A stretch of 46,361 nucleotides of DNA from Terriglobales bacterium (GCA_036511435.1 DATCCF010000088.1:1-46361), one strand, 5' to 3'; numbered from the stretch's first letter, positions 13,125 to 46,187 are shown. Notes: generated from the sequence alone by a model not told the origin. A program made the numbers and translations.

Positions 13125-13199
<75 letters not shown>

Positions 13200-20141: not shown

Positions 20142-20240
20142 CTGCGGATCAGTCCGGTCAGAGGGTTGGCACTGGCCTGCCGACCCTCTGATTCGCGGAT
20201 TTCTTGTAACAGCGATTGTTTGCTGGCGTCCGGCATCTCA

Positions 20241-23558: not shown

Positions 23559-23690
23559 TTTGTCTATGCGCCGGGACAGCAACTATAGCATGAACGTGAC
23601 AACCGGCGAAATATTGGGCTGAGGTTCGACTTTTCTGGCTGCTACCGTCTCAGCCGCAGCCTATGATCGTTTACTTGTGATCCTGGATTT

Positions 23691-23993
23691 TCACCAACCC
23701 TTGCGGAGCTCAAATCTGCCGTCTTCCTCAAGCAGACTGAATTTGTACCGCTTGCCCCTGAACCCTACCTCGATCCCAGCGCCGAACCTGACGTAAAGGA
23801 GCTGTTCCGGTGTAACGCCAACGAGTTTTCCGCCAAAAGACTCTGGAAATCCGCGCTCAGAATACTGACCAAGATCTGCTTCTGCCACAATAGTGGTGAT
23901 TGCGCTTCTACGCTGGTATTGCTGAGCATCAGAGTCAATGAGGCTGGTGATCGAAAGAAGATATTGCATCGAAAAGACCCTACACATTCCCAC
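23691..23993 (-). CDS. small hypothetical protein downstream of the SNF2 gene
   Basis: ORF begins 15 nt after the helicase stop on the same strand. Start ambiguous (23993, 23987 or 23969). No family recognised. Confidence 0.35.
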   Translation of the reverse strand: MGMCRVFSMQYLLSITSLIDSDAQQYQRRSAITTIVAEADLGQYSERGFPESFGGKLVGVTPEQLLYVRFGAGIEVGFRGKRYKFSLLEEDGRFELRKGW

Positions 23994-24008
23994 TTGGTAC
24001 AGCCATGA

Positions 24009-26705: not shown

Positions 26706-26758
26706 AGGTGCGGTTACACGCTGTCGTTTTCTAAAGCACCAGCCACGAGTCCAGCCGC

Positions 26759-27188
26759 ATGACCGTCGTCCTTCCACGTGGATATCTTCACTTCCATGGA
26801 GGCCAAGTAGCGCAGGATTATGATCAGGGACTTGCGCTGACCCCAGTACCCAGCCAATTCTGTTTTCAGCCAGTTCCGACCACCCATGCTGGACTCCCGT
26901 GGCTGAGGTACCTCCGTATGCGGGTACCCGGCGTGCACTTTTGGCCATTTGACGGCTGGGAGATTCCTGCAGGAAGGTCAGTCGTGGGCAGAAGTGTATC
27001 CATCTCTCTGGAGTAAAGGTTTCGCGCGAGAGGAGAGGAATGGCGATCAGCATGATGCCTTTTCGGTTGCAGCATGGATGCGTTACTCCGACCTTGATGG
27101 CAGGCTCGCGGACTTCTTGACTCCCGCGCTCACGCCTTCAGAGCAGGAGACAGCGCAGATTGAGGATTGGATACTTGGAGTTCAGTAA
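26759..27188 (+). pseudogene. frameshifted 3' remnant of a conserved hypothetical gene (possibly DUF429-like)
   Basis: Two overlapping frames join as ...VHFWPFDGWEIPAGRSVV / AEVYPSLWSKGFAREERNGDQHDAFSVAAWMRYSDLDGRLADFLTPALTPSEQETAQIEDWILGV, with the shift near 26985-26995. Only the C-terminal part of the family appears to be present. The family assignment is weak. Confidence 0.35.
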
Positions 27189-27285
27189 GATCTTGGGATG
27201 CGACAGTTTTGTAGGCCCAATGATTGTGGTCTGACGCAAGTACACCACACCAAAATGACACACAGGGTGGAAGGAGAAACACACC

Positions 27286-30144: not shown

Positions 30145-30150
30145 CTCGCC

Positions 30151-31548: not shown

Positions 31549-31742
31549 AAATCGGCATCGTAATCTTGGCAGATCGCGCAGCCGTTCTCTGACGTTGGTC
31601 TATGCCTTGCTGAACACAGGCTGGGATAGTGAGTTAGGAATTCTCATAGTCTTCAAAGTAATCGGCCACCAGAATGAAAACCATGGCATCGCCAGCGTAG
31701 CGGACGCTGTGCGACTTTTCAGAAATGCAGACACATAGCCTT

Positions 31743-32354
31743 CTAAGATTCCGTTACGCAAACTGCCTTAATCCCAAACCGTTCGACTATCTTCACCACC
31801 TCATCGCCGGGTAGAGATCTTGCCGATGTCTGGTCCGACCATTGTGTACCGCTTTTGAGCGGCTTCAGCGGCGCTAAACTCGTTGAGGCTACCTCGCGGG
31901 CAACGGCCTCGATCGCCGGCCAATGCTGCAGAACCAACTCCGCTGCTCGCTGCTGCAGGAGTTCATGCACCTCGGGAACGGTCCTCTTGCCCAGGTACTG
32001 CCTTGAAAGATTGGTTTCTATTCCGCGCGCCTCTTTCGAGTCCGGGCTCAAAGTAACTTCGAGGTCGTCGGGCAATGGGCAAGAATAGCCATGCTCCTCG
32101 CAGAATCGCTTCTGCGCTAAATACCCGGCAACGGTGGCAACGATAATGGACTCTTTCGACTCGTCGGACTCGTCCGGTTCCTTGTAGAAGCAGGCAAGGC
32201 CCCACGCACCCTTATCGACCATTATTCCTTCCGGGCGCAACCGCAATCCCATTGCTGCCGCTATCACAATGTGTCCGGCTTCATGATGGGCTGCAATGGT
32301 CAACCTCGTGTCCAAATTGTCGGTTTTAGCCGCAACTTGCTCGCCACGTTCCAT
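31743..32354 (-). CDS. stand-alone HEAGH zinc-metallopeptidase (FtsH/M41-like catalytic domain)
   Basis: TIAAHHEAGHIVIAAAMG resembles the M41 HEAGH motif. 203 aa, with no AAA+ or TM part. Starts 45 nt after the reconstructed HNH stop. Confidence 0.6.
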   Translation of the reverse strand: MERGEQVAAKTDNLDTRLTIAAHHEAGHIVIAAAMGLRLRPEGIMVDKGAWGLACFYKEPDESDESKESIIVATVAGYLAQKRFCEEHGYSCPLPDDLEVTLSPDSKEARGIETNLSRQYLGKRTVPEVHELLQQRAAELVLQHWPAIEAVAREVASTSLAPLKPLKSGTQWSDQTSARSLPGDEVVKIVERFGIKAVCVTES

Positions 32355-32399
32355 GTCCCCATGATAATGCCCGCCACAATGCGGTTCACTGAGCGGTCA

Positions 32400-32508
32400 T
32401 CAATCTCCCGGTCTGCTCGATCCCTTTTCGGAGTTGCACCACCAATGCACGGCTTGGATGTTTTCCGAATGGTCATCTCGCCAGGCTCCTCCCATTCCTT
32501 TCGGGTGT
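32400..32508 (-). pseudogene. 3' fragment of the HNH endonuclease gene split by the Tn7-like insertion
   Basis: After removing 32514-44339 and one CTGTG copy, this reads in frame as RHPKGMGGAWRDDHSENIQAVHWWCNSEKGSSRPGD, with the stop (TGA) at 32400-32402. Confidence 0.8.
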
Positions 32509-32513
32509 CTGTG

Positions 32514-32563
32514 TGTGATTTAAACCATAAAGTTGCCGTTTGGCAGCGTTATGCTTTAAATGG
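32514..32563. repeat. Tn7-like left end: terminal site followed by an inverted copy
   Basis: TTTAAACCATAAAGTTGCCG (32519-32538), then tt, then TGGCAGCGTTATGCTTTAAA (32541-32560). The arms are complementary at 16/20. Confidence 0.7.
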
Positions 32564-32715
32564 TGCCGATGTGCTGGGCCAGCCCGCGACGGCGCCATTG
32601 CACACGACTGAGATTCGGAGCTGCATCGCGCGGGCGCCAGCAACGCGGAGATCGCGCGTCGGCTCCCTACCGGCCGCATCTCGGTGCGTCGTATCATTAA
32701 GGAAAGGATTCGCTG

Positions 32716-33096
32716 ATGAGCCATTCGTCGATGGAATTTCACAAGATCTGGATCGAACAATGCGCGGCCACCGAAGACATCCGTGAGCAGTTCGGGGCGA
32801 AAAACGCGTTGGACTATCTGATCGGGGAGAAGCTTTTTACGTTCGTGATGGCATCGGAGCAGGACTCCGAGTTCGCTGCGCAGTTGCCGGCATTCGTCGC
32901 CGCTATTCAGGGGCTGTTTTCCGCCGAGGAGATTCGTGCCTATCTCGACCATCTGGAGAGCGCGAAGTTTCTGGCTTCGCCTGAGGCGGAGATCGAGGAC
33001 GAGGACGAAGAAGAACCTTGGCCGGCAAATCCCGTGCTGGGCGCAGCGGAGCTGTTGCGTTTTTCGCGCATCCGCCAGCTGCTACAGTCTTGCTGA
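32716..33096 (+). CDS. acidic hypothetical protein (transposon cargo)
   Basis: 126-aa ORF with an EIEDEDEEE tract. No family recognised. Confidence 0.45.
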   Translation: MSHSSMEFHKIWIEQCAATEDIREQFGAKNALDYLIGEKLFTFVMASEQDSEFAAQLPAFVAAIQGLFSAEEIRAYLDHLESAKFLASPEAEIEDEDEEEPWPANPVLGAAELLRFSRIRQLLQSC

Positions 33097-33486
33097 CGGT
33101 CCGCGACAAAAAAGCCGTGGCCAAACCCAAGCGAGACCGCCTCCGCGAGGAACGAATCCACAACGAAGTCATCGTCGACGCCTATGGGCCGGAAGAGCAA
33201 GCTCTGGGCTGGTATTACTTCCTGGAAGATAAGCTACGATTCCCTTTCCCCGCCCGCTGCATCTCGGCCAAGGTGGTGTCGCCGCTCCGCAAGGGAGAAA
33301 CCGTCGAGGTCCTCCGCATGGCGCCCGAAAGATGCGTGTGCCGGCGACATGCTGGTGTTGATTCGCTGGCAGGGACGCAATGTCGCAGTTCCTCTGTCCC
33401 AACTAGTTGCCATTGACGCGGATGAATCTACCCTCGAGGCCATCGGCGACTGGCACTACTGGCTGGCGCAGGGCTACTGTTTCTGA
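33090..33486 (+). pseudogene. frameshifted conserved small protein (family often annotated 'calcium-binding', from memory)
   Basis: Frame 0 gives ...IVDAYGPEEQALGWYYFLEDKLRFPFPARCISAKVVSPLRKGETVEVLRMAPE. The +1 frame continues DACAGDMLVLIRWQGRNVAVPLSQLVAIDADESTLEAIGDWHYWLAQGYCF. The shift is near 33328-33335. The start (TTG 33090) is uncertain. Confidence 0.5.
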
Positions 33487-33539
33487 GTCAGGCAGCCCCG
33501 TTGAGAGTTACGCATGCGGGCTGGATATCGAAGACGCGT

Positions 33540-34094
33540 ATGGCAAAACGTCAGTCGAAATCGCAAACCACGTGGGCTGATGTCAAAGCCAAGCTCGCCG
33601 CTTTTGACCGGGGGGCCTTGCTGGACTTGATTCACCATCTCTATGCCGCGCACAAAGATAACCAGGCCTTCCTTCATGCCCGCTTTGGCTTGGGCGAGGA
33701 TGTGCTCGAACCCTATAAGAAGACCATCGATCGCTGGCTTTGGCCCGACGTGTTTCGGAACCAGGACACATCCGTCTCCCAGGCGAAACGGGCCATTGCC
33801 GATTACAGAAAGGCGGTGGGTGACCCCGCGGGACTCGCCGAGTTGATGGTTTTCTACTGCGAGCAGGCCGCTGGGTTCTGTCGGGATATCGGCTATCAAG
33901 AGGAAGAATATTTCGACGCCTTGGTTCGCATGTTTGAACAAGCCATCAGATCGACCAACACGCTATCCGCTACCGGCCGCGACGGCTTGATCGCGCGCTT
34001 AGACCGTGTGCGGGAAATCAGTCATTCGTTTGGCTACGGCGTCGAAGATGACATGGATTTCCTTCTCGCGAAGTACACCAGGCGTTCCGGCTGA
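33540..34094 (+). CDS. hypothetical protein (transposon cargo)
   Basis: ATG at 33540 (MAKRQSKSQ...). Helical-looking 184-aa product. Its 3' end overlaps the convergent tniQ ORF by 96 nt. Confidence 0.5.
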   Translation: MAKRQSKSQTTWADVKAKLAAFDRGALLDLIHHLYAAHKDNQAFLHARFGLGEDVLEPYKKTIDRWLWPDVFRNQDTSVSQAKRAIADYRKAVGDPAGLAELMVFYCEQAAGFCRDIGYQEEEYFDALVRMFEQAIRSTNTLSATGRDGLIARLDRVREISHSFGYGVEDDMDFLLAKYTRRSG

Positions 34095-36092
34095 TAAGCT
34101 AGCGAGTTCATCGATTACCCTTGGCGGGGAGAACCCAGTGCAGTTGTGCGGGCCTGTCGCAAGCACATTGCGCGCTTCACGAACCGCCGAGGAAATGGTC
34201 TTCCAGTCGCAGCGAGATCTTTCGGGAAGCCGCTCAACGACTCTTTCTACTGACGGGTACATGCCCCTACTTTGAAGTTCAACGGCAATGGCATGGATGT
34301 CGTGAAACAACCGTTCACGTCGGTGCGCTGTCTTAGCCGAGACGAACCGCCGGTGCTGCTCGATGATCATTCGCGCCCCAGCCGGGAAGTGCTTGTTCAT
34401 GAACGGTACCGTAACATCGAGTCGCCTGCAGACGGCTCGCAAAGATGGCGCCGGAGTTTCCCGGAGCGCCGCCATCGCTTCCTTCTCCAGACCAGATCTG
34501 CGCTTCGCAATGTAGAACCTGTATTGCGCCATGAGTTGATCGCATAGAGTGGGTTCATGCCTGCGTAGAATGGCTGAGTGCGAATAGCCGACACGGTGGC
34601 TCAAATCCGTGAGGGTCGGCGGTGGATGTTTGTGGAGCGCGTTTCTTAAGGTCCGGCGCAGACTTTGGAGACGATCTTGTTTCGCCTGTACGATCTTCTT
34701 GCCGATGGCTGCACATAGCTCTGGGAATTTTTGTTGAATATAGCCACTGTTTGGATGTTCAAGGCGTACAGCAATCTGATGAACTGAGGTTGGTTCGGTC
34801 GAGCTGAGAGACTGCTCTAAGATTTCCTTCAGTAGAGTCTCACACACTCTGGGCGCTCCAGGTTTCTTCCACCAATGACGCCCGCCCGACTGTCGATATC
34901 GGGCAGTGATTTTGTAGCAGATCGCTCGGTCGACTTCATAAAGGCTGTACGTGGTTGTGTAGCCCAGTCTGCGCGCAATCTCTGTGACGCTGAGCGGCAC
35001 GGCATCATCAAATGCTGCCAGAAGAGCTCGCCGAATTTCGAATGCATGCCGGGATGGGGACACAGAGCGCTTTCCTCTGATGGCAACCGCTTGCTTTGCG
35101 GCGGCTATGTTCGTGGGCGTCGGTCCCAACGGAGCATAGAAGCTAGAAATCGGAACATTCAAGTATCGAGCGATTCGCAGCAGGTTTTCGAGTCGAGGGA
35201 GTGCTGCACCAGCCAGCCAACTGTGCAGCATAGAATGGGGACACCGAACGTACTCTGCGAGGGCGAGGACATTGCCGCCTGCAACCTCTTCGAGATACAC
35301 GATGAGGCTTCGGCGAAGTGATTCCCGGGCAGCCACCGGGTCGACCCGGGGAAGCATCGCCAGCAGCCCTCCTACTTGGGTACAAGACCACGTTTGGTCT
35401 TCTCCGCTGGTCGAGCTAGGTTGTGACTGGTCACTGTCGGCATATGGCGCGCCCAACCAACCGCCACAGCGCTCGCAGAATCCCGGCTGGGAGAAAACGC
35501 CGAGTAGATTTAGCGCCCGCCCACAGCAAGGACAAGTGTGACTGAGCGGCCGCTGGTGTACCGGGCAATGGGATGACACTTTGATTGCCCAGAGAAGCGG
35601 CTCATAGACGGTTTGCCCGTTCAGCCGCCATTGTTCGAAACAGGGCGCGCACCAGGTCCGGTGCCGATGAAACAAATGATCAGGCAGCGCGTAGCGGAAC
35701 GGAAGGAGAGTGAGACACCGCAGGTCACGCCGGCTCGTCGCCACTTCCAGAGCGTGGACCCACTTTTTGGCACGGTCTGTAACGCCGTTAACCGTATAGC
35801 CACAAACTCGAAATCCATGTCCGCCGCGTCCGCCAGCTTTGGCCACCGGCGGGATGATCGCGCCTTGGGCATTCGGAACCTCTGAGAGCACCCGGCCTAC
35901 AAGGTCTCCAACGCTTACCGAGTGCGCTTCGGCAAGCCGGGCAACGTAGCCGCTCAGGCTCTCGACCAATGCGGTACCGATGCCAATCGGCTCAAGCGAA
36001 TAGAGCCGGCTTCTCGGCGGAATCGGCGAGCTTGAGAGTGACCACGAATCAAAGAGCGGCTGCACTTGCATCCATTTGTCCAATGACGTCAC
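33999..36092 (-). CDS. tniQ: TniQ/TnsD-family target-selection protein (697 aa)
   Basis: N-terminal TniQ pattern (PPRSRLYSLEPIGIGTALVESLSGYVARLAEAHSVSVGDLV) and a Cys cluster (CPVHQRPLSHTCPCCGRAL). Long C-terminal region with repeated HTH-like segments. The 3' end is uncertain because of the convergent overlap. Confidence 0.8.
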   Translation of the reverse strand: MTSLDKWMQVQPLFDSWSLSSSPIPPRSRLYSLEPIGIGTALVESLSGYVARLAEAHSVSVGDLVGRVLSEVPNAQGAIIPPVAKAGGRGGHGFRVCGYTVNGVTDRAKKWVHALEVATSRRDLRCLTLLPFRYALPDHLFHRHRTWCAPCFEQWRLNGQTVYEPLLWAIKVSSHCPVHQRPLSHTCPCCGRALNLLGVFSQPGFCERCGGWLGAPYADSDQSQPSSTSGEDQTWSCTQVGGLLAMLPRVDPVAARESLRRSLIVYLEEVAGGNVLALAEYVRCPHSMLHSWLAGAALPRLENLLRIARYLNVPISSFYAPLGPTPTNIAAAKQAVAIRGKRSVSPSRHAFEIRRALLAAFDDAVPLSVTEIARRLGYTTTYSLYEVDRAICYKITARYRQSGGRHWWKKPGAPRVCETLLKEILEQSLSSTEPTSVHQIAVRLEHPNSGYIQQKFPELCAAIGKKIVQAKQDRLQSLRRTLRNALHKHPPPTLTDLSHRVGYSHSAILRRHEPTLCDQLMAQYRFYIAKRRSGLEKEAMAALRETPAPSLRAVCRRLDVTVPFMNKHFPAGARMIIEQHRRFVSAKTAHRRERLFHDIHAIAVELQSRGMYPSVERVVERLPERSRCDWKTISSAVREARNVLATGPHNCTGFSPPRVIDELASLSAGTPGVLREKEIHVIFDAVAKRMTDFPHTV

Positions 36093-37200
36093 GCGTCGGA
36101 AGCCGCTGGCCCGGTCGCCGGCGCTTGACCGGAGGGGCTGGCCGTGTCGGATCTACTTCTGTTGTCGCGTGAGTGCTCAAACCCAGTCTCCCGCGAAGCC
36201 GCGCTACTGCCTCGCTGCGCTCGTTCAGCTTGAGTTCGCCATCTGTAGTCTCCGCGTACAGTTGCTCGCATTGAGCTACGCACAAGGCTTGAGATTCAAG
36301 ATCGGCTCTCGTCAACCGGCGGCCACCCTTTCGAGACGCGACGGTAGCAGCCCGCATCAGCCATTCCTTCAAAATGCCGACGCAACCAAGGCTCCGCTCG
36401 TACAGGAACTCCCAGTCGCTTACAAGGTCTGACTGATCCTCAAAAGCAAGTTCCTTCTCGAAGGACTGCACGACATTGATGAAGGTTTGGCGGTCTCCCG
36501 AATCTTCGGCACGGTAACGAGCGAGGTGAACGTCGACGCTTCGTCTGCTGAGTTGCCCATTCAGATTTCGGAACGCGAGCAGGTCGTAGGTCCCGAACAA
36601 AACGTGTACGGTCTTGGTCTGATTGGCGATGGACTTGACTACATCCAATTGATCGAGCAGGCGGCGGCCTGATGAAATCTTGCCGAGGTGCTGGGCTTCA
36701 TCGATCATGACCGCGACGGGCCGGCGATAGCGGATAGCCTGCTCCACGGCGTATCGGTATTCGGTACCGACCGCTCTGAATGTGGGCATGAAGCGCATGC
36801 TGGGTTCGACGAAGGCCCGCTCCACCTGTCGATTCAGCTTACGGTCGATCAGCGGCTCGTCAAGTTGGTGGAGGAGACGTTTGTAGTGATCGCGCCAGTT
36901 GAAACTCCCGGACTCAGGAGCTACGGCTTCGACACTAACCACCGGGACCCGCGTGATGTCTTCATGGAGTTCGCTCAAGAGCTCCGCAGTAATCAACTGC
37001 TCCGTTTTCAACCGTAACGTCGTCTTACCGACCCCGGTCGGTCCAAACACAAAAATGAGCGAATTCGGCTCGGCCCCCCGTATTGCATTTATCAGTGTCT
37101 CTTTGGCTTCCACGAGCCGAGGATGCGCCACCGTGAAGGAACGAAAGCGGTCAAGTCGCAACTCAGTACCATCCGGTTCCCGATTGTGGTTAGCCGCCAT
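36049..37200 (-). CDS. tniB: TniB/TnsC-family AAA+ ATPase
   Basis: Walker A IFVFGPTGVGKTT and Walker B VAVMIDEAQHL. The start overlaps the tnsAB stop by 1 nt, and the end overlaps tniQ by 44 nt. Confidence 0.85.
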   Translation of the reverse strand: MAANHNREPDGTELRLDRFRSFTVAHPRLVEAKETLINAIRGAEPNSLIFVFGPTGVGKTTLRLKTEQLITAELLSELHEDITRVPVVSVEAVAPESGSFNWRDHYKRLLHQLDEPLIDRKLNRQVERAFVEPSMRFMPTFRAVGTEYRYAVEQAIRYRRPVAVMIDEAQHLGKISSGRRLLDQLDVVKSIANQTKTVHVLFGTYDLLAFRNLNGQLSRRSVDVHLARYRAEDSGDRQTFINVVQSFEKELAFEDQSDLVSDWEFLYERSLGCVGILKEWLMRAATVASRKGGRRLTRADLESQALCVAQCEQLYAETTDGELKLNERSEAVARLRGRLGLSTHATTEVDPTRPAPPVKRRRPGQRLPTRDVIGQMDASAAAL

Positions 37201-39734
37201 CAGAAGTCTCCGTAGACCGCGCTGGCCTCAGCTTGACCGGGTACTGATATCGGCGGCGTAGCGTTCCCAGACTGTGATTCCTTGAAGGCCTCTCGACTGG
37301 AGGCTGCGTCTGGAACAACAGCGGGGCCGTTCTGGCGGATCGACTTGCTTTCCCGATCACGCAATCGCTGTAGGAGACACTTCTCTTCCGCTTCGGCTGA
37401 TCCAAGAAAATCTGCCAGTTTCCGAGCCGTCAGAGTGAATCGCTCCCGAGAGTGCAACTGGCTTCGTCGGCGTACCTCCTTGGACGCCAACATTATTTCT
37501 TTCTCCGAACGGCCCCGCAGCGCCGCATAGTGCTCAGAGTGGCCCTCCGTCCATCGGTTCTTCACAAACGCGTAAGCTTTGCCGATATCAAAAGGATCGT
37601 ACCGGACGGCGACGTCGTGATTTTCAACCGTGGGATCGCGGAATGCCTCGGCCCAGTAGTACACGCCGTTGACGATGACCCCACGCCCAGGTGACACTCT
37701 CGCAGTGCCCCGTTGAGTTGTTGGAAGGGTAGCCATTAAGAACGCTTGATCGTAGGGAATCAATCTATTCGGGCGAACGCCGGTGCTTTCCAGGCTCTTG
37801 AAATACGCCTCTCGCGGGGTTTGCCCGAGAGCGGGGTGCTCGATGGTATCGTAGATCTGGAACAGGAAAGACGACAGATAGTCATAAAGATGAACGAGGG
37901 TCCAAGCCGCCTGTCCCACAGGGTCGTTGCTCTTTGTGACCTGTCGGACGTTGCGCATGATCTGAGTGTTGCCCCGCAGGCTGTGAATAAACTGAGTGTT
38001 TGTGGTGCCGAAAAGCCGCTCGCAGACGGAGCCGAACCTCGCCTTTGCCGGCGGCCGCGTCTTCTTGGTGCATTCATAGCGGGCCAGGAGCGTTTCGAAA
38101 TATGTGCTCTGGAATTCGGGGCCACCGTCAATGACGATAATCTGCGGCAGGCGGCCATGGCGCCGGACACAATCCCGCAGAATCATCATGCAGGACCTGT
38201 AGCTCGGAGCGTCGAATGTCAGATAGAGCGCAAGGCAACGCCGTGAGAAGGCATCCGTGAGAATCGTCATCCACGGCCGCCCGAGTGGACGGCCGGTGTG
38301 GGAGCAGACGACTTCAACGTCCAACTCGGTATGATCGATGTGCCCGATCTCGAAGGGACGGTCTCCATGGCGCGGCGTAGTCGGTTCCAACTCGAAATAG
38401 AAGAATGCATGGGTGTACGCGGCGCGTCGCCCCCGCCGCTTTAACGTTTGTTCGAAGGTCGCACGCTCGCGCACGGCAACACAGAACGTGACGTAGCTCG
38501 GCGCTTCGATGCCACGCTCGTCGCATTTGCGCTTCAGCGCTGCCCACGACGCGATCTTTGTCTTTTGCCTGAGATTCTCGTAATCGTTCTCGATAAACTG
38601 AATGAGCAGGTCGCGCGACTCCTCGGACAAGCGGCTGGTTCTGTTTCCTCGCTTACTGGTCTTCCCCAGCAAACCCACATACCCGTTGCCGTACTGCTCT
38701 TTCGCGAGCCTATACTGCGCCGCCCACAGGCGCAGCGTCCTCGCCGGGATAGAATGCGGAGCTTTTTCCCCTCCAAGATGAAGTTTCACAAGATCGAAGC
38801 GCCGGTTCGCGGCGACCAAGTCCTGCTCGCTGGCCGTTGCCAGGAGATGGAAGGCCTCGCTATGCGCAACTGGCGCTTGAGCAGACGGGCCGCCGATGCG
38901 TCCGCAGTTCGCCACACGCTCCTTCAACTCATGACAAGCTAGCTGGTATGCAGTAGCAACTTCTGCGTTGACAAAGACGCGAACCTGGTCTGGCTCGACG
39001 ATCGCGGCTGCGCTAAGGTCCACGTAGACGCCGCCGCTTGCGATCAGTAGGTAAATCTCGTCAGGTTCCGCAACGCCGCGGACCTTTTCCAACAGCTCCT
39101 GCAGAAGTATTCCTGGTTCTGCTTCGATTGCCGTTTTGATGGCGGCGTCGATAAAGCCTGTCGCACCCGCAGAGTCGAATCGCAGATAGTCGTCCAGGAA
39201 CTGGAGGTTCCGCTGGAGAATCCAATTAACCTCCGCCGATGACCATACTCGGTAGTCCAAGCCCAGTGCCGAGGCGTGCACTTCTCCCGGCGGGCAGCGC
39301 CAGTCGCCGTAATTATCTCGAAGGTAGCGGTGTGGACTCTTGATGGCCAGCTTTTCGAGATCCTCCGAGCTTTTGCACTCTACCCATCCCGCAGAGTCGC
39401 GGCGAAGCACAAAATAGTCTGGGGTATGCAGAATCGACAAGCGTCTGCCGTTTGCCGCGTGATAGATGAGCGGAATAGAGGGCGGCTGGTCGTAATACTC
39501 CAGTACTCCGGGATCGTGCTCCATTTCGTATACGAAGGGCAGTTCAACTCGGTGGCTTTCGAACTGGATGGTGATGCCCATTTTGCGGCTGGGATACCGA
39601 CCGGAGACGTTTTGGCGACCGCCTCCAACGCGACGAGTAGGATTACGGGACCGGACCGCAGTGATCGTCGCACGTGTTGTCTCGGTCAACCCGAGCCGTG
39701 CACACCAGCCAAGAAAGTCCGCCTCGTTGAGCAC
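37200..39734 (-). CDS. tnsAB: TnsA-like endonuclease fused to a TnsB/TniA DDE transposase (844 aa)
   Basis: N-terminus: FESHRVELPFVYEMEHDPGVLEYYDQP...LHTPDYFVLRRDSAGWVECKSSEDL, a TnsA-type E...D...K pattern. Middle and C-terminus: HIDHTELDV, VIDGGPEFQS (rve-type DDE) and a Mu-transposase-like C-terminal part. GTG start. Confidence 0.85.
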   Translation of the reverse strand: MLNEADFLGWCARLGLTETTRATITAVRSRNPTRRVGGGRQNVSGRYPSRKMGITIQFESHRVELPFVYEMEHDPGVLEYYDQPPSIPLIYHAANGRRLSILHTPDYFVLRRDSAGWVECKSSEDLEKLAIKSPHRYLRDNYGDWRCPPGEVHASALGLDYRVWSSAEVNWILQRNLQFLDDYLRFDSAGATGFIDAAIKTAIEAEPGILLQELLEKVRGVAEPDEIYLLIASGGVYVDLSAAAIVEPDQVRVFVNAEVATAYQLACHELKERVANCGRIGGPSAQAPVAHSEAFHLLATASEQDLVAANRRFDLVKLHLGGEKAPHSIPARTLRLWAAQYRLAKEQYGNGYVGLLGKTSKRGNRTSRLSEESRDLLIQFIENDYENLRQKTKIASWAALKRKCDERGIEAPSYVTFCVAVRERATFEQTLKRRGRRAAYTHAFFYFELEPTTPRHGDRPFEIGHIDHTELDVEVVCSHTGRPLGRPWMTILTDAFSRRCLALYLTFDAPSYRSCMMILRDCVRRHGRLPQIIVIDGGPEFQSTYFETLLARYECTKKTRPPAKARFGSVCERLFGTTNTQFIHSLRGNTQIMRNVRQVTKSNDPVGQAAWTLVHLYDYLSSFLFQIYDTIEHPALGQTPREAYFKSLESTGVRPNRLIPYDQAFLMATLPTTQRGTARVSPGRGVIVNGVYYWAEAFRDPTVENHDVAVRYDPFDIGKAYAFVKNRWTEGHSEHYAALRGRSEKEIMLASKEVRRRSQLHSRERFTLTARKLADFLGSAEAEEKCLLQRLRDRESKSIRQNGPAVVPDAASSREAFKESQSGNATPPISVPGQAEASAVYGDF

Positions 39735-39771
39735 TTGCCCTCCGCAGCCGGAACGGCAGAGACGCCGCTGG

Positions 39772-40107
39772 CTACTTTCGGATGTGCGAACTGCGCTCGT
39801 TCTTTAGCGCCAACGTGTACCTTCGCCCGGCTTCAGCCATAAGCTTCTGAAGATCGCGGCCGTTCCGGATGGCCCTTTCCAAATCCTCGGCCAACTCGTC
39901 AGGCACATAGATCGAAAACCGGCGATTCCCCTTGCGGCCATACAACGAATAACTGGAGTGTCCCTGCCCTGCTTCGCATAGCTGACAGCGCTTTCGAATA
40001 CAGGGGCTCTTCCGCAAGGACAGAGACCCGATGGCCACAGGCCAGAGATCGCGAACTGCCCTCTGAAACCAGAGTCTGACCTGTTCCGGGGTTTCTGTTC
40101 GAGTCAT
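39772..40107 (-). CDS. small Cys-containing protein (DUF6788-like, from memory) upstream of tnsAB
   Basis: ATG at 40107; GSLSLRKSPCIRKRCQLCEAGQGHSSYSLYGRKGNRRFSIYVPDELAEDLERAI. 37-nt gap to tnsAB. Confidence 0.5.
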   Translation of the reverse strand: MTRTETPEQVRLWFQRAVRDLWPVAIGSLSLRKSPCIRKRCQLCEAGQGHSSYSLYGRKGNRRFSIYVPDELAEDLERAIRNGRDLQKLMAEAGRRYTLALKNERSSHIRK

Positions 40108-40118
40108 TGTATAGGTGC

Positions 40119-40147
40119 ATACTAGCACACATACATTGTCGATACAA
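40119..40147 (-). promoter_or_regulatory. putative sigma70-type promoter of the small-gene/tns operon
   Basis: On the minus strand: TTGTAT (40147-40142), 17 nt, TAGTAT (40124-40119), 11 nt before the ATG at 40107. Lies in the only AT-rich patch of the region. Confidence 0.3.
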
Positions 40148-40179
40148 GACAAAAACTACAAGCAACTGAAGGCCCGGGT

Positions 40180-42636
40180 CTACAGGTGTGCCGGGGGATG
40201 GGGTGGAAACGTCTCCTGCTCGATCACATAACCAATCGCGGCATAGCCCTTCAGCCTGCGCTCGTACATTCTGGCCAGCATTGGAACGTAGTTGTCCACA
40301 TAATCGTAGACCTGCACGAATCGTTTGTTGTCGTGAAGACGATGCAACCGCCCCACATACTGCTGCAACGTGCCCTTCCAGGAGATCGGCATGGCCAGGA
40401 ATAGCGTGTCCAGACGCGCGTCGTCAAACCCTTCTCCGATGTAACTTCCCGTCGCCAGAATCACCCGCGCTTCGTTTTCCGGCACTGATGCCAGGGCCGC
40501 CGCTGTTGCTCGACGCTGCTTCTTCCCCATGCCGCCCTTCAAGACGAAGACGTGCTTGGCAACACCCTCAAGTTTGGCTGCGAAATGCTGGAGATGCTCT
40601 GTCCGACCGGTCAGAAGCAGCGGGCAACGTCCAGATTCTATGGCGCGCACGATGTCGTTGGCGATCATCTCGTTGCGCGAGACATCATCGACGAGCGCGG
40701 CGTAGATGTCCTGGATCGTGACCTCGGTGAGTTCGGACGCCATCCGGAACTCCGTATGGCGGGGAGTCACCTTGTGCTCAAAGGGTGTCGTTTCGGTCAT
40801 CGTCCGGGCGCTCATGCTGAACCGTACGGGGCCACACTGCATGTAAATGATCGGATGGTGCCCGTCCTTCCGCGTCGGCGTGGCGGTCAGACCGACAACA
40901 TACTTGGCCTTTACCTGCCTCATGACCTGTTCGAACGTGAAAGCGGATATGTGGTGGCATTCATCGACGATCACCTGGCCGTACTCAGCAACGAAGTCCT
41001 TCACTTCGTCTTTTCGGTACAGGCTTTGGATGACGGCGACATCCACGTAACCCGTCCGGTCCATTTTGCCGCCACCGATATGTCCGATCGATTTGGCTGG
41101 CAGATCCAAGAACATCCCAAGGCGCTCCTGCCACTGATCGAGCAACTGCTGCCGGTGAACGACTACCAGAGTGTTGACCTTGCGTTTCGCGATCAGCCAC
41201 GCCGCAACGGCGGTCTTTCCGAACGCTGTCGGCGCGCAGAGGATACCTTCGTCGTGTGCGGTGATCTTCGTGACGGCTTCCTCCTGGAACGGCCGAAGCT
41301 GACCCTGGAACTCCGCTTCAATCGCTGAGCCTGAGTACCGTTCGTCCCGAACTTCGGGCCGGATCTTGTGCGCCTCGAGAAGAGCCAACGTCTCAGTCAG
41401 GCAGCCACGAGGCACAGCAATGTGATGGGCGAATTCCTGGCCGCATGCGATCACACGCGGTTTGTCGAACGTCGAGAGCCGCATCGCCTGAGCCTTGTAG
41501 AACTCCGGGTTCTGAAATGCGGCCAGCCGGAGTAACCGATTTAGCATGGCTGGTGGGAGATCCTTCTTTTCCACGTAAACAAGATTCGCGCGAACGACCT
41601 GAACAGTCTTTGGTAGCGGCCCTTCGATCGGCCGCTCCCTCCGCTTGCCAGAATGTGGCAAGGTCCACGGGTCTCGTGCATCGTCGTCATCGGCGATGCT
41701 AATCCGGACTCCGATCAGGTCGCCTTTGCGCTGAGCTTCCGCAACGATCTCCTCGGCGGCGTCGGCCGGCATTCGTCGAATTGTCGAAAGAAACTGCCAT
41801 TGGTCGGGGTACGGTTGGAAGTCTGAGTCAATGAACACACTGTTGCCCAACTTGCGTGGCGCAAACTGCAAGGGGAGCGCAATCAGATTCCCGAGCCCTC
41901 CCTTGGGCATCGTGTCCTGGTTGGGGAAAAAGCGATCATAGGAATCGAGACCGAGCTGATGCCTGCGCTCCATGGTGCGCGTGAGAATCAGGCATCCCAG
42001 TTTGCGCGCGGTAATCGCTGACAGCGCACGATCAAAGAAGATCCAAATGTGGCCGCCGTTCCCGGAGCGAGAACGCTCCAAGGCAGCTGGCACACTCAAC
42101 TCCTGGCAGGTCTCAAGGAAAGCCTGGGCGTCATACTCCCAAGTCTTCTTGTCGAAGTCTGCCGCGAGAAACCAGCACGTTTCGTCGGACAGGAGGGGAT
42201 ATACGCCAACGGCTTCCTTGCCCAAGAGGTGGTTCTCGATGACGGCGTCGGTCACCGGGAGGAACTTCCTTGTCTTCTGGTCGACTTTCTTCCGCTCCTC
42301 CGGGCGGCTTTTGTTAATGGCCTTCCAGTCCTTTACGGCCGCCGGCACATATCCCGATCGGCCGTCGTCATTCTTCCATCGCTGTGCGTAGACATCTTCT
42401 CTCCCGCGAAACAGGCTTCGAAACAGCGCGATTCTTTTTCTGGCACGCTCCTCCTTGTCCACCGGTGGCGCCGTCTCGACGGTTTTGGTTGGAGGCCGAT
42501 TCTCTGGCGCAAGTTGCGGAATCGGAATGCTGTGAACCGCCAGGAGCCGCCGCAGGCGAGCGTTTTCCTCCCGGAGGCGAATATTTTCCTGCTCTGGAGG
42601 CTCGAATGGAAGAGATTCCGAAACCTTCTCGGTCAT
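40180..42636 (-). CDS. AEP (PrimPol)-like primase-polymerase domain fused to an SF2 DEAD/DEAH-type helicase (818 aa)
   Basis: AEP motifs: FLAADFDKK (DxD), ERSRSGNGGHIWIFF (sGxGxH), SYDRFFPNQD...GGLGNLIALPL. Helicase motifs: CAPTAFGKT, VIVDECHHISA, GLTATP, QYVGRLHR. Starts 7 nt after abiEii. Confidence 0.8.
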   Translation of the reverse strand: MTEKVSESLPFEPPEQENIRLREENARLRRLLAVHSIPIPQLAPENRPPTKTVETAPPVDKEERARKRIALFRSLFRGREDVYAQRWKNDDGRSGYVPAAVKDWKAINKSRPEERKKVDQKTRKFLPVTDAVIENHLLGKEAVGVYPLLSDETCWFLAADFDKKTWEYDAQAFLETCQELSVPAALERSRSGNGGHIWIFFDRALSAITARKLGCLILTRTMERRHQLGLDSYDRFFPNQDTMPKGGLGNLIALPLQFAPRKLGNSVFIDSDFQPYPDQWQFLSTIRRMPADAAEEIVAEAQRKGDLIGVRISIADDDDARDPWTLPHSGKRRERPIEGPLPKTVQVVRANLVYVEKKDLPPAMLNRLLRLAAFQNPEFYKAQAMRLSTFDKPRVIACGQEFAHHIAVPRGCLTETLALLEAHKIRPEVRDERYSGSAIEAEFQGQLRPFQEEAVTKITAHDEGILCAPTAFGKTAVAAWLIAKRKVNTLVVVHRQQLLDQWQERLGMFLDLPAKSIGHIGGGKMDRTGYVDVAVIQSLYRKDEVKDFVAEYGQVIVDECHHISAFTFEQVMRQVKAKYVVGLTATPTRKDGHHPIIYMQCGPVRFSMSARTMTETTPFEHKVTPRHTEFRMASELTEVTIQDIYAALVDDVSRNEMIANDIVRAIESGRCPLLLTGRTEHLQHFAAKLEGVAKHVFVLKGGMGKKQRRATAAALASVPENEARVILATGSYIGEGFDDARLDTLFLAMPISWKGTLQQYVGRLHRLHDNKRFVQVYDYVDNYVPMLARMYERRLKGYAAIGYVIEQETFPPHPPAHL

Positions 42637-42643
42637 ACCGCGT

Positions 42644-43528
42644 TCACCGCTCCGTGCGACGTGTCAGCACTTCTTGGAGATACTCCTGTACGCCCGCAAA
42701 CACCGCGGCGATATCAGTTGGGAGCCCGCATTCTTCCACCAGGGCTTGAAACGGGATCTGCCAATCCGCTGGCGGCGGAACCAAACCCCCCGGCAAATCG
42801 TGTGTTCCTCTTCTCTCAAACGTCAGACGCAAGGCGTCCAGGATTCTCTGTTTATCCATGCCTCCTGATCTGATCAGGAGAGCCAGGTCCACCAAGTCCT
42901 TCACTCTGCTGTTCGCAGCGTTCCGCGGGAGCGTGTAGGCATGAATCTTTTCAGCGAACTGCTGCTCGCGAGCGATCATCCGGACGCGCGCCGATTCGAT
43001 GCCAGCGAATCCCAGCCAGTCCCGGCAGATGATTGTTTCCAGCGGCTGCATAACCACGTCACCAATGCCGGCATCCAGGTGGAATCGGGCAAAGATCCGT
43101 TCGTCCATTCGAGCTTCGACAGGATAGCGAGCCCCGCCGCACGGCGCGGCGGTCAAATCGATGACAGGCGGTCCGATCGCGTACTCGAACCAGTCACCAA
43201 GAGGGATGTCAGCCACGCTCTGCAGCATCCCGCGTACAACCTGGTTCGTGTCACCACCCGCCGATGTTGCTGCCCCCACTCGCTGCAATGTCAGGTCGAT
43301 GTCCACCGTTGATCGAGCAGCCTTGAAGCGCAGCTCCAGCGCATAACCACCCTTCAAAACCCAGGGCGCTGGTTCTTCCCGGAACAGCCTTGCCAGCAGA
43401 CGGTCGAATGATACCTGTCGCCGGAGGCGGTTGAGATCGATCTGATCAGTAAGAGAGGCCCTCTTCAGGCGTTCTTCAAGAGCCCTTCGGAATGCTCCCG
43501 CCGTCGCATATGTCCTGGGTGACGGCAT
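42644..43528 (-). CDS. abiEii: AbiEii/AbiGii-family nucleotidyltransferase toxin (type IV TA)
   Basis: WVLKGGYALELRFKAARSTVDIDLTL... is typical of DUF1814/AbiEii. Overlaps the abiEi stop. Confidence 0.85.
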   Translation of the reverse strand: MPSPRTYATAGAFRRALEERLKRASLTDQIDLNRLRRQVSFDRLLARLFREEPAPWVLKGGYALELRFKAARSTVDIDLTLQRVGAATSAGGDTNQVVRGMLQSVADIPLGDWFEYAIGPPVIDLTAAPCGGARYPVEARMDERIFARFHLDAGIGDVVMQPLETIICRDWLGFAGIESARVRMIAREQQFAEKIHAYTLPRNAANSRVKDLVDLALLIRSGGMDKQRILDALRLTFERRGTHDLPGGLVPPPADWQIPFQALVEECGLPTDIAAVFAGVQEYLQEVLTRRTER

Positions 43529-44139
43529 TATGCAGCTCGCCGCAGCACTTCCTCTACGATTTTGCGCGCAGGTCCGCTCATTTGCGTGTTCCGAATCTGT
43601 TGGCGAGTGATCAGACCACGGTCGACAGCCTGCCTTAGCGCCTGGCGGATGAAGTTCCGCTCGACCGTGCCAGCCTCGATCAGGTCAAGAATCGTCCGCA
43701 GAGGGCGAGTAAACTTGAAGCCCTGCGCCGTCTGTACGTCGCTCTCGGACAGGTCGGCATAATGAAGTACGAGGATGCCGGGAATATCGCTGTTGCGCCG
43801 GAAATCTGTCGGAACGGTCATGTGGAGCTTCGCCGGATTCAGGTCTGACAGATCGTAGAGGCTGAGCGCCGTGTGGTGGCTGTACGCACCCTCGACTTCC
43901 TCGTTCCGGTTCCGGGACCACAGTGCCCAAAGGACTAGGTCGGGCCGATCAGCCGCCGGAAACAGAGCGAGCCGGTAGATACCCCGGTGCTCGCGGATCC
44001 AGTTCCCGACCTGCACATGATAGGGGTGCGTGTTTTCGGCGAATCCGGCCGCCTTAGCCTGCTTGGTAGTGAAGAAACCTTGCTGCTGCTCAGCAAACTC
44101 GAAGAGCTGCCGCGAGGCTTCACGGTGAGACTGGGCCAT
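43528..44139 (-). CDS. abiEi: AbiEi-family antitoxin / transcriptional regulator
   Basis: GFFTTKQAKAAGF...WIREHRGIYRL... and C-terminal TRPLRTILDL are AbiEi_4-like. First gene of the operon. Confidence 0.8.
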   Translation of the reverse strand: MAQSHREASRQLFEFAEQQQGFFTTKQAKAAGFAENTHPYHVQVGNWIREHRGIYRLALFPAADRPDLVLWALWSRNRNEEVEGAYSHHTALSLYDLSDLNPAKLHMTVPTDFRRNSDIPGILVLHYADLSESDVQTAQGFKFTRPLRTILDLIEAGTVERNFIRQALRQAVDRGLITRQQIRNTQMSGPARKIVEEVLRRAA

Positions 44140-44145
44140 AACACA

Positions 44146-44174
44146 ATACTACAACTTTCTTGACGCTAAATCAA
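44146..44174 (-). promoter_or_regulatory. putative sigma70-type promoter giving a near-leaderless abiEi transcript
   Basis: On the minus strand: TTGATT (44174-44169), 17 nt, TAGTAT (44151-44146), then 6 nt (TGTGTT), then the ATG at 44139. No Shine-Dalgarno sequence is possible in that space. Confidence 0.35.
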
Positions 44175-44214
44175 CAGCAGGTGATTGGGGAAGCCTACGG
44201 CCGCACTGCAATTC

Positions 44215-44339
44215 CGGCAAGGTTATGGTTTGAGAGCCTCCGCCGGCGACGGCGGCCTTCCAAGCGAAATCAACAACTTGAAGGAGATCATGCGGCAAGG
44301 TTATGGTTTAGGTTCGGCAAAGTTATGCTTTAAACCACA
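44215..44339. repeat. Tn7-like right end with three direct TnsB-type sites
   Basis: CGGCAAGGTTATGGTTT at 44215-44231 and 44293-44309; CGGCAAAGTTATGCTTT at 44315-44331, followed by the terminus AAACCACA, which ends at 44339. Confidence 0.8.
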
Positions 44340-44599
44340 CTGTGGTCCGGTACGATATCGCTGCAGTCGTCAAATTCACGGTGGCAAATGGCGCACTTCC
44401 CTGTCTGCTCCACGACTTTTCGGCTCAGCAACTTCCGCATCTCTGCTGGTGACCGGAGTTCCCGATATCCCCTTGGATGGTGCGGATCTTCGATGCGCTG
44501 AACACCAAGCTGAAATCTGCGTCCTTTCCGTACCTGCTCGCGACCGCAGCAGAAGAGCGATCTATGGATCGGACAATATTCATTCCGACGGAGTTTCAT
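44340..44599 (-). pseudogene. 5' fragment of the HNH endonuclease gene split by the Tn7-like insertion
   Basis: MKLRRNEYCPIH...GKCAICHREFDDCSDIVPDH, then the reading frame runs into the transposon end (SVV-stop). Confidence 0.8.
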
Positions 44600-44793
44600 G
44601 GGAATGCTCCAGTGTGACTTGCATTGGTATTCGTTTTGGCTTTTCAGGGATTGGACTACCGAGAGAGAGCAGGATGGACGCTATGCACCGGGCTCCGGTT
44701 TTACAAACTGGCGCCGGCTCTCACGTGTTCACTCATCCATCATTTTGCAGACGAGTTTGTGTTACAACCGGAACAGAAGTCCAAAGGATTGTC

Positions 44794-45051
44794 ATGTCTG
44801 GTTTACGGGATCGATTTGCTCAAGCTCAAGAAGACGTGAACGGCCTTGGCGAGCGCCCGGACAACAACACGATGCTGAAGCTGTACGCTCTTTACAAACA
44901 GGCGACTCAGGGCGATGCCACTGGGGAGCAGCCAGGGGGCTTCGACTTTGTCCGCCGCGCCAAGTTCGACGCCTGGAGCGAGATCAAAGGCACCTCCACC
45001 GAGGACGCCATGCAGCAGTACATCGACCTGGTTGCCTCCTTACGGCGCTGA
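44794..45051 (+). CDS. acyl-CoA-binding protein (ACBP)
   Basis: 85 aa; FAQAQEDVNGL..RPDNNTMLKLYALYKQATQGD...GGFDFVRRAKFDAWSEIKG.STEDAMQQYIDLV is a classic ACBP pattern. The longer ORF from 44185 is spurious upstream. Confidence 0.8.
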   Translation: MSGLRDRFAQAQEDVNGLGERPDNNTMLKLYALYKQATQGDATGEQPGGFDFVRRAKFDAWSEIKGTSTEDAMQQYIDLVASLRR

Positions 45052-45128
45052 GACCGTGCCGCCATTTGGCGCACTCTCTTCGATGTTGGAGCACTGCCTA
45101 GGAAGTCAGATGCCCCACTCCGCCGCGC

Positions 45129-45356
45129 CTATCCGTCCCTTCTCAAGCTGGTTAGCAGCCCCGAATACCGCCGTTGTGGACGGTCATTATGGACGGCGAT
45201 ACCGAGCGCCTTCCGCTGGCCAATCAGTACGAGCAGCCGCTTGCCCCGTGTGATCCCGGTGTAAACCAAGTTGCGTTGCAGCAGCATGTAGTGCTGCGTG
45301 GTTACTCGCACGCCATCTCGGACCAGGACATTGCGCTCGCCAATGACGGGACACAC
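45129..45356 (-). pseudogene. C-terminal remnant of a RecD2-like SF1 helicase
   Basis: HYMLLQRNLVYTGITRGKRLLVLIGQRKALGIAVHNDRPQRRYSGLLTSL matches the last ~50 aa of RecD-like helicases. No upstream helicase body is present. Confidence 0.55.
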
Positions 45357-45371
45357 AGTTTATGGGCACAG

Positions 45372-46187
45372 TCAGCTTTTTTTGAACCTTTTCATTATTA
45401 GCTCTAGGGCTCTCATTCGAAGTGGCATGTCATCGGGACCCGTATCGGGCACTTGCAGGTATTCGTGAAGCCAACGAGCACGTGCCGCCATCTGGAGAAC
45501 CTCGTTTTCCAAAAGGCCATCCATTTTGGCTAATGACGGAATGAAACAGACATAAGCGATTCCGTCGAGAGGATCTTTGTTCTCCACATCTTTGCACCAG
45601 GCACCGAAACTTCGGCTCCTCGTCCAGTTGGTTAGTTCGGCAATGTTGAGTCGATTGGCGAGCTCGACATTTTGAGAGACTCCGGGAATCAAGGGAATCT
45701 TTAGCAGAAGGAACACCCCGCCGCCCAATTTCGGGTGAGTGACATCCGTTAAGACCCGCATCATCGCCGTGGATGGGACACAGCCGGCGAAGGAAAATTC
45801 TACCGTGGCACCCTTCTCGTCTGAATTCGCAATCACAAAAGGGCACGGTGACATCTTTTCGATTCTTGCACACTCTTCCCCAGCAAATGCAGATGGTTGT
45901 GAGCCTGTCTGCTTAAACAAATGCAGCACATTGAGCATGTCGTCGGGATTGGTTCGGAGGCCGTTAGGAGGAATCGTCTCGTCGGCAGGTGCGCCAAGCA
46001 AGTCGGCGAAGGGATCCAGCTCGGCATGCGCCTGAGCTGCCTGGATCGCCACCGCGGTCGCGAAGTACGGAGCCTGCCAACCTGCGTTCTCCGCATGGAA
46101 GTACGCGCAGCAAGCCAATTTGAGTTTCATCTGTTGTGGGTCATAGACGTATCGATTCAGGTTTGCGGCGGAATTGGCGAGCGCCAA
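45372..46187 (-). CDS. hypothetical protein (271 aa)
   Basis: Clean ORF; no family recognised. Confidence 0.45.
   Translation of the reverse strand: MALANSAANLNRYVYDPQQMKLKLACCAYFHAENAGWQAPYFATAVAIQAAQAHAELDPFADLLGAPADETIPPNGLRTNPDDMLNVLHLFKQTGSQPSAFAGEECARIEKMSPCPFVIANSDEKGATVEFSFAGCVPSTAMMRVLTDVTHPKLGGGVFLLLKIPLIPGVSQNVELANRLNIAELTNWTRSRSFGAWCKDVENKDPLDGIAYVCFIPSLAKMDGLLENEVLQMAARARWLHEYLQVPDTGPDDMPLRMRALELIMKRFKKS

Follow-up and report, generated by a model that had tools for sequence, protein, structure and literature searches.

The stretch of DNA from a Terriglobales bacterium that was analyzed here (46,361 nucleotides (nt), referred to below as the window) was found to carry a Tn7-family transposon of 11,826 bp with the termini TGTG...CACA, located at 32514-44339 inside a small gene for a putative HNH nuclease. 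We conclude, with a probability of about 0.88, that this is an intact and recently mobile element of the TnsAB-fusion subfamily that targets the HNH gene. Insertion at this site is precise and repeated. Among 97 related loci (numbered with the prefix L), about 15 distinct insertions were found at one nucleotide, the His86 codon plus 2 nt of HNH paralogues, mostly in one orientation, and the site follows the clade of the target selector, TniQ.

A preliminary description of this DNA had proposed a complete Tn7-like element with exact termini and a 5-bp target-site duplication inside an HNH gene, and this was borne out at the coordinates given above. The left terminus reads TGTGATTTAAACCATAAAGTTGCCG from 32514, and the reverse complement of the right terminus reads TGTGGTTTAAAGCATAACTTTGCCG from 44339 leftwards. 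On re-reading, the two were again found to match at 21 of 25 positions and to start with TGTG, and perfect copies of CTGTG were seen on either side at 32509-32513 and 44340-44344. Since the TGTG terminus adjoins the duplication, the exact boundary could be blurred, and it was settled by copies that carry other duplications (CATAT in L010/L005). By convention, the right end of such an element is the one upstream of the transposition genes (PMC11406308), which is position 44339 here.

The end sites were located by scanning the window with a 19-bp site motif. The three direct copies of CGGCAA(G/A)GTTATG(G/C)TTT claimed for the right end were found at 44215, 44293, and 44315, and two further sites were located at the left end, giving asymmetric arrays of sites of about 20 bp. 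Outside these five sites, the whole window contains 1 match to the motif, with 4 mismatches. The second left-end site, which is absent from the preliminary description, is retained in all close relatives, and the two left-end sites (32520-32538 and 32541-32559) together form a near-palindrome. Left-end sites in both orientations have been reported for the TnsAB-fusion subfamily (PMC9881144), and the arrangement in the window matches. The left terminal 25 nt are kept in L004, L005, L007, L015, L017, L022, L040, and others, and the right terminus of L016-L018 is TGTC instead of TGTG.

Joining the two flanks after removal of the element and one copy of CTGTG gave a 369-nt open reading frame (ORF) on the minus strand that encodes a 122-amino acid (aa) protein, exactly as had been predicted. 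The predicted empty junction is ...GTACCGGACCACAGACACCCGAAAGG..., and the insertion splits the D-H pair of the catalytic motif at His86. The restored protein has 1,467 homologues, dozens of which are exactly 122 aa long with 100% coverage and up to 88% identity, and eight uninterrupted genes were read in contigs. Given these full-length homologues and uninterrupted genes, a natural end of the HNH gene near 44340 can be rejected. The name given to the gene stood less well: the CxxC...DH...N...HxxC motifs are visible, but the Pfam matches to the restored protein are below threshold (PF01844 (HNH), E = 0.0027, 18.3 bits against a cut-off of 21.4 bits, residues 69-117; Endonuclease_7, E = 0.0012). 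PF01844 is precomputed on several of the homologues, and one NCBI record is named HNH, and we consider the label reasonable but soft. A single genome can carry several copies of the gene. No relatives of the HNH gene or of TniQ were found in IMG/VR with the patterns that were used.

Scans with TniQ identified 12 loci from Acidobacteriaceae, Terracidiphilus, and Korobacteraceae metagenome-assembled genomes (MAGs) and a further 80 in metagenomes of peat and soil. In one scan 139 metagenome stretches were confirmed, and the acidobacterial family is large. HNH halves broken at residue 86 directly adjoin the element ends in the window and in L004, L005, L007, L010, L011, L015, and L016/17, and the same break was found in L018, L019/20, L022, L028, L029, L038/L064, and L040. 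The flank in L021/L080 is a decayed HNH remnant. In all of the same-site copies except L039, the right end adjoins the 5' part of the HNH gene. Read on the HNH strand, the duplication is a perfect copy of the local target, being CACAG in the window, L022, and L040, and CATAT in L010 and L005; in L011 and L004 (CACAT(C)) and in L017 (CACAG(A)) it can be read as either 5 or 6 bp. The same ends and the 5-bp duplications expected of related copies were both found (L022, L040, and L010 with L005), and more distant relatives at other sites have 5-bp duplications as well.

The proteins encoded by the HNH flanks are 72-88% identical, whereas the DNA of the elements is 97-98.6% identical over a length of 9.5 kb. 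These copies are therefore the product of independent and recent insertions. Near-identical copies are found at different sites and in different genomes, and one MAG (MFD09286) contains two copies, each in a different HNH paralogue.

In a neighbor-joining tree, all HNH-inserted elements group into a single clade by their TniQ proteins, and elements with a TniQ that is 59-80% identical to that of the window use the same nucleotide. Clean 5-bp duplications were also seen in the sister clade (L023/L024) and in the outer clades, there at other sequences. Relatives with similar TnsAB proteins and ends but a different TniQ insert elsewhere, which points to TniQ as the selector. The suggestion that the HNH coding sequence serves as the attachment site is thus supported by the insertions at one nucleotide and by their single TniQ clade. 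When the other copies were inspected for insertion at unrelated sites, they were found to share the HNH nucleotide, with four exceptions in the clade.

The tnsA::tnsB fusion, tniB, and tniQ genes claimed for the element were all recovered with Pfam. The fused transposase aligns end to end with chain M of 9BW1 (9bw1_M, 898 aa, E = 7.9e-281) and also matches TnsB chains from Tn7 and from several CRISPR-associated transposons (CASTs). Its candidate catalytic residues are E59/E64, D106, and K121 in the TnsA part and D467, D536, and E572 in the TnsB part. Tn7_TnsA-like_N matches residues 74-134, the TnsA_like match is under the cut-off, and the nuclease role of this part is predicted. More than 30 relatives likewise encode TnsAB as a single polypeptide. 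TnsC matches 8fcu_Q, the TnsC of PmcCAST (E = 6.7e-94), and TniQ matches 8v32_J, the TnsD of PmcCAST (462 aa, E = 3.2e-63), over residues 11-378 and 541-642. Sequence comparison ties the 9BW1 and 8V32 entries to structures of the type I-B CAST from the Peltigera membranacea cyanobiont, namely its TnsABCD transpososome and its TnsC-TnsD-att complex (PMC12585508). TnsA-TnsB fusions define a subfamily that has been described before, with the I-B2 and I-D CASTs among its members. Most known members are cyanobacterial, and tRNA attachment sites have been reported for the subfamily along with "other unstudied non-CRISPR targeting systems" (PMC9881144, PMC11406308, PMC10293859). No Cas domain was found in any ORF, and no CRISPR array or Rfam RNA was found within 31500-45500; the element is thus not a CAST. 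With its TnsA domain, and with no resolvase ORF found in it, the element was not assigned to the Tn5053/Tn402 family, which is defined by TniA/TniB/TniQ together with a TniR resolvase and a res site and which has no TnsA.

For tniQ, the gene and its domains stood as described, and the start of the 697-aa reading frame did not. Relatives carry in-frame stops upstream of Met8, and the protein therefore probably starts at Met8 (36071, 690 aa). The C-terminal half (residues ~366-600) consists of four helix-turn-helix (HTH)-like repeats of about 57 aa. The TniQ of L002-L005 and L040 is without repeat 2 through a 50-aa deletion, and elements with this type of TniQ are still at the HNH site. A module swap in the TniQ of L002-L005, considered because of an identity of 65% in tblastn, was ruled out by an alignment identity of 85% together with the deletion of the 50-aa repeat. 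The element in the window is a mosaic with a breakpoint within tniQ at about residue 413: the right part resembles L002/L010/L040, and the left arm resembles L014/L015. The in-frame stops were also considered as signs of pseudogenes or recoding and were found to lie mostly upstream of Met8 or where the gene naturally ends. The internal stops that remain are in L021/L080 (191 and 193, beside the decayed HNH remnant), L037/L090 (538), L071, and the nanopore contig L010. In L097, an IS21-type element is located inside tniQ (14404-17066). The features of the element and of the interrupted gene are compiled in Table 1.

Table 1. Coordinates of the transposon, its ends and genes, and the split HNH gene in the window
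Feature	Position	Strand	Basis or remarks
HNH gene, 3' part, codons 87-122 and stop	32400..32513	-	restored ORF, full-length homologues; includes left CTGTG
Target-site duplication, left copy CTGTG	32509..32513		
Left end, terminal 25 nt starting TGTG	32514..32538		holds terminal predicted TnsAB-binding site 32520-32538
Second left-end predicted binding site	32541..32559		opposite orientation to terminal site
126-aa ORF, left arm	32716..33096	+	89-98% identical in L014, L015, L019, L020, L022
197-aa ORF, left arm	33501..34094	+	convergent with tniQ, overlapping its 3' end; weak DUF6155 match
tniQ/tnsD target selector, 697 aa	33999..36092	-	PF06527, HTH_3; TniQ zinc-finger core and four HTH-like repeats
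tniB/tnsC AAA+ regulator, 383 aa	36049..37200	-	TniB/AAA_22; Walker A residues 53-60
tnsAB fused transposase, 844 aa	37200..39734	-	TnsA_N, rve, and Mu-transpos_C in one protein
DUF6788-like protein, 111 aa	39772..40107	-	Cys/His zinc-knuckle-like motif; directly upstream of tnsAB
AEP primase-polymerase (PrimPol) fused to SF2 helicase, 818 aa	40180..42636	-	AEP-TOTE E = 1.5e-94, ResIII; PADLOC PrimPol E = 1.7e-94
abiEii toxin (nucleotidyltransferase)	42644..43528	-	Pfam, PADLOC
abiEi antitoxin/regulator	43528..44139	-	Pfam, PADLOC
Right end	44215..44339		three direct predicted TnsAB-binding sites 44215-44233, 44293-44311, 44315-44333, and terminal ...CCACA
HNH gene, 5' part, codons 1-86 and 2 nt	44340..44599	-	restored ORF
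Target-site duplication, right copy CTGTG	44340..44344		

In the mechanism that we propose, the long TniQ/TnsD would recognize the HNH coding sequence through its N-terminal zinc-finger core and the C-terminal array of four HTH repeats. By homology to the solved TnsABCD transpososome of PmcCAST, TniQ would recruit the TnsC ATPase, and TnsC would in turn activate the TnsAB that is bound at the end sites. TnsAB would then be expected, again by homology, to excise the element and to insert it at the His86 codon (CAY plus 2 nt) through joins staggered by 5 bp. The recognized sequence may be in the 5' half of the HNH gene, beside the right end, an assignment drawn from the analogy with Tn7 and the CASTs. 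As the HNH gene is located on defense islands, the transposon adds its AbiE and PrimPol-helicase cargo to these islands and can travel with them.

Several observations weigh against this interpretation. L014, the TniQ of which is 97% identical to that of the window, has a bona fide left end beside unrelated sequence; this flank (3738-3770) contains GATGGGAAG at an offset of +18 to +26, as GATGGGAGG is found in the 3' half of the HNH gene. The occurrence of GATGGGAAG in L014 may be chance, a decayed remnant, or a sign that recognition also involves the left-side flank. L002 and L003, which are nanopore MAG contigs, have housekeeping flanks (dnaJ, peptidase M16) and no duplication, and L003 has a tandem junction with the spacer CCAAT and a permuted abiEii; both may be rearrangements or misassemblies through the repeated element. 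L009 is a truncated remnant without an HNH flank, and L039 (11337-11423) shares the HNH position of the other copies but is inverted. A 6-bp reading or a shift of 1 bp applies to L017 (4047/12356; CACAGA), to L011 (1756) with L004 (10455; CACATC), and to L018 (390). The two halves of the HNH gene are about equally conserved in DNA, which does not discriminate the recognized half. Finally, the binding of TniQ to the target, the footprint of TniQ, and the activity of the element in transposition are predictions.

It is possible that TniQ recognizes the 3' half of the HNH gene, on the left-end side, around GATGGGAGG, which encodes G-M-G-G. Among elements with a near-identical TniQ, L014 alone has a left flank that is not HNH, and its GATGGGAAG is at the exact offset from the left end that is found at the HNH site; the 3' flank is also at least as conserved as the 5' flank (mean column identity of 0.84 versus 0.81). 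However, the resemblance of GATGGGAAG to GATGGGAGG is a single match at 8 of 9 positions that may be due to chance or to a decayed HNH remnant, and we regard recognition of this half as unlikely. A different explanation for the common site would take the choice away from TniQ altogether and attribute it to TnsAB/TnsC or to a DNA-structural hotspot in the HNH gene. The target CCNGACCACAG|TGTG... does somewhat resemble the CACA/TGTG termini of the element. However, L023/L024 and L050-L070, with a TnsAB that is 75-83% identical, nearly the same ends, and TniQ proteins from other clades, are found at other sites, and it is established that TniQ/TnsD chooses the site in all of the Tn7-like systems that have been studied (summarized in PMC11406308). 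A choice of site without a specific role for TniQ is therefore considered very improbable.

The shared position could also be explained without any target recognition if one ancestral insertion had spread with duplicating and diverging islands or by gene conversion. The HNH gene is found on islands that may themselves multiply, and the flank mismatch in L019 (CATAA versus CACAG) indicates that recombination between copies does happen. This explanation is at odds with the near-identity of elements that are located between strongly diverged HNH flanks, with duplications that in each case perfectly copy their own local target, with the use of the same nucleotide by elements with clearly different TniQ proteins, and with the abundance of empty sites. 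A single ancestral insertion is largely refuted, and the chance that we allow it is smaller still than that of a hotspot. As the target is a nuclease gene and the point of insertion is at its catalytic motif, we also considered homing, in which the HNH nuclease would cut empty alleles and repair of the double-strand break would copy the element into them. The nuclease gene does not survive the insertion, the element has TGT/ACA termini and complete Tn7 machinery, and strongly diverged flanks beside near-identical elements are unexpected under break-repair copying. Since target-site duplications of 5 bp are present, homing is refuted and its probability is close to nil. TniQ-directed transposition into the HNH gene remains the interpretation that we favor.

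The closest known systems are the TnsD pathway of PmcCAST (type I-B2, Peltigera membranacea cyanobiont 210A) and the TnsAB-fusion subfamily (Hsieh & Peters 2022, PMC9881144). The element in the window has in common with them the fused TnsAB, TnsC, the N-terminal core and last repeat of TnsD, bi-oriented left-end sites, the 5-bp duplication, and, as predicted here, site- and orientation-specific insertion directed by a TnsD-type TniQ. Unlike PmcCAST, it lacks cas genes, a CRISPR array, and a second short TniQ, and it carries a DUF6788-like gene before tnsAB and accessory genes between the right end and the core operon. Its host is a soil bacterium of the Acidobacteriota rather than a cyanobacterium, its attachment site, adjacent to a tRNA gene in PmcCAST, falls within the coding sequence of the HNH gene, and its TniQ is about 690 aa long with four HTH-like repeats, compared with 462 aa in PmcCAST.

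With Tn7, which inserts at attTn7 near glmS, the element shares heteromeric TnsA/TnsB chemistry, TnsC, TnsD, TGT...ACA ends with several sites, the 5-bp duplication, a fixed orientation with the right end towards the recognized gene, and, as predicted for the element, recognition of a highly conserved coding sequence. However, Tn7 inserts downstream of an intact glmS, whereas the element in the window splits its target gene, and Tn7 has separate TnsA and TnsB proteins and a second pathway (TnsE). An attachment site inside a disrupted protein-coding gene is likewise found for the Tn6022/AbaR-type elements in comM, which also show pile-ups and tandem or internal insertions (PMC11014353). Tn6022 uses TniQ with TnsF (a tyrosine-recombinase-like selector) and TnsE, its TnsA and TnsB are separate, and comM is a single-copy chromosomal gene. 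The cyanobacterial Tn7-like transposons that target CRISPR repeats are reported to be likewise protein-directed to a multi-copy target in defense loci, with a CRISPR repeat as the target instead of the coding sequence found here (PMC11837452).

Fused TnsAB, TnsD-directed homing, the orientation of the left-end sites, defense cargo, and pile-ups have already been described for Tn7-like elements. The HNH attachment site and this acidobacterial family were not found in the literature searched, which does not span all journals, and the same was true of the conserved DUF6788-like gene and of the long-retained PrimPol-helicase/AbiE module on the right side. One precise position in a small nuclease gene on mobile defense islands would be a new class of attachment site for Tn7-like elements, and the Acidobacteriota are hosts that are barely represented in earlier surveys. 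The family could serve as a natural model for selector evolution that is free of CRISPR, consists of three or four proteins, and is close to the solved transpososome 9BW1, and it could show how a TnsD-type selector with modular HTH repeats gains a new DNA specificity. It also suggests how defense islands may be assembled, with site-specific transposons inserting at the border of the variable part of the islands and bringing AbiE and a PrimPol-helicase with them.

Read on the minus strand from the right end, the genes are ordered abiEi-abiEii, PrimPol-helicase, DUF6788-like, tnsAB, tnsC, and tniQ, followed by two genes of no assigned function on the opposite strand and the left end. The DUF6788-like gene, for which 400 homologues were found, is directly upstream of tnsAB wherever this region is present, even without the other accessory genes (L001, L006, L008, L012, L016-L093, L097). 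A confident AlphaFold2 model of the protein (predicted local distance difference test (pLDDT) score of 88) has a helix, three strands with the Cys/His knuckle, and a long C-terminal helix. A sequence search of the PDB and a Foldseek search against the PDB (best E = 0.25) gave no assignment, and DUF6788 is not mentioned in the literature searched. The protein may be a fifth core component or a regulator.

The adjacent AbiEi and AbiEii proteins fit the definition of a type IV toxin-antitoxin system (E = 3.5e-69 and 1.1e-85). Together with the PrimPol-helicase, they occupy the region between the right end and the core operon (40180-44139). The module is kept in relatives with other target sites (L023, L035/36, L039/L064, L075, L093). 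Across the relatives, the AEP-helicase is 77-95% identical compared with 69-83% for TnsAB; this divergence is similar or lower, which indicates that the module has long traveled with the core. In canonical Tn7, cargo is found on the left-end side only. The placement and persistence of the AbiE/PrimPol-helicase module are unusual for Tn7 "cargo". A TOTE conflict system is defined by TPR, OB, and TBP components with an effector (PMC12458937), and the only such domain found inside the element is the effector-type AEP-TOTE domain, so the module was not classified as one. That the DUF6788-like protein and the PrimPol-helicase are working parts of transposition, as a fifth factor and a priming or repair module, and not passive cargo, is an idea that we consider improbable.

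Members of the family are often arranged head to tail, with 2-7 bases between the left end of one element and the right end of the next, and sometimes belong to different subfamilies. Tandem junctions were found in L003 (12869-12875), L012 (5873-5881), L051, L052, L055, L061, L081, and L082. This arrangement suggests that the same site is used repeatedly and that target immunity is weak, and a priming or repair module encoded by the transposon could explain why tandem arrays are frequent.

In the left arm, the 126-aa ORF has no match in Pfam, NCBIfam, or PADLOC. The 197-aa ORF is 76-98% identical in the HNH-targeting relatives, and its conservation exceeds that of the overlapping ORF on the opposite strand. 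In L040, an insertion of about 4 kb is located within this gene (12106-16151).

In the window, the HNH gene and the transposon lie within a genomic island, the genes of which are given here for 13125-31548. The island begins at a tRNA-Val gene (13125-13199), which is followed by an integrase gene (13285-14493, minus strand), and it contains genes for an RNase H (16937-17761) beside a TPR protein (17925-19304), an alpha/beta hydrolase, a PLD/SNF2 helicase over two ORFs (24009-27053), and McrBC (27286-31548). The RNase H and TPR pair is possibly TOTE-like. No repeat of the 3' end of tRNA-Val was found in the window at the far end of the island. At the empty sites, the HNH gene has backbone neighbors (DUF6094-helicase-DUF932, an HTH gene, and E2/ThiF/JAB) and variable neighbors (a Thoeris-like TIR protein, BrxL, GAP1/DO-GTPase, CBASS, and type I restriction-modification), and an integrase gene or fragment is located within a few kb at two of the eight (L013, L094). 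The HNH gene is thus found at the border of variable defense cargo in integrative islands.

Of two occupied sites in MAG MFD09286, the one in L004 is followed downstream by genes for a deaminase, the TrwC relaxase, and a coupling protein of the TrwB/TraD type (13348-19369), and the one in L010 has a DUF932 gene upstream (513-1352). The HNH-bearing island may be conjugative in some genomes. In this context, the gene that serves as the attachment site is a conserved landmark of integrative islands, some of which may be conjugative, and not a housekeeping gene. With a conserved, multi-copy gene of integrative defense islands as its attachment site, a single selector might serve both "safe-site" homing and horizontal spread, a proposal that we advance tentatively and at somewhat less than even odds. 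A 924-aa ORF in L040 was considered as the TrwC relaxase of L004 and was found not to be the same protein. Similarly, the 271-aa ORF upstream of the HNH gene in the window (45372-46187) is unrelated to the DUF932 protein seen elsewhere.

On the other side of the HNH gene, a 203-aa ORF with an HEXXH motif (31743-32354, minus strand) starts about 45 nt past the HNH stop codon and is not conserved beside other HNH genes. It has no significant family match (Peptidase_M50B-like, E = 0.037). Outside the island, the window has a gene for an ATP-dependent DNA ligase (8788-9921, minus strand), and in L009 a ligase ORF (8904-9992) directly abuts the truncated tniQ remnant.

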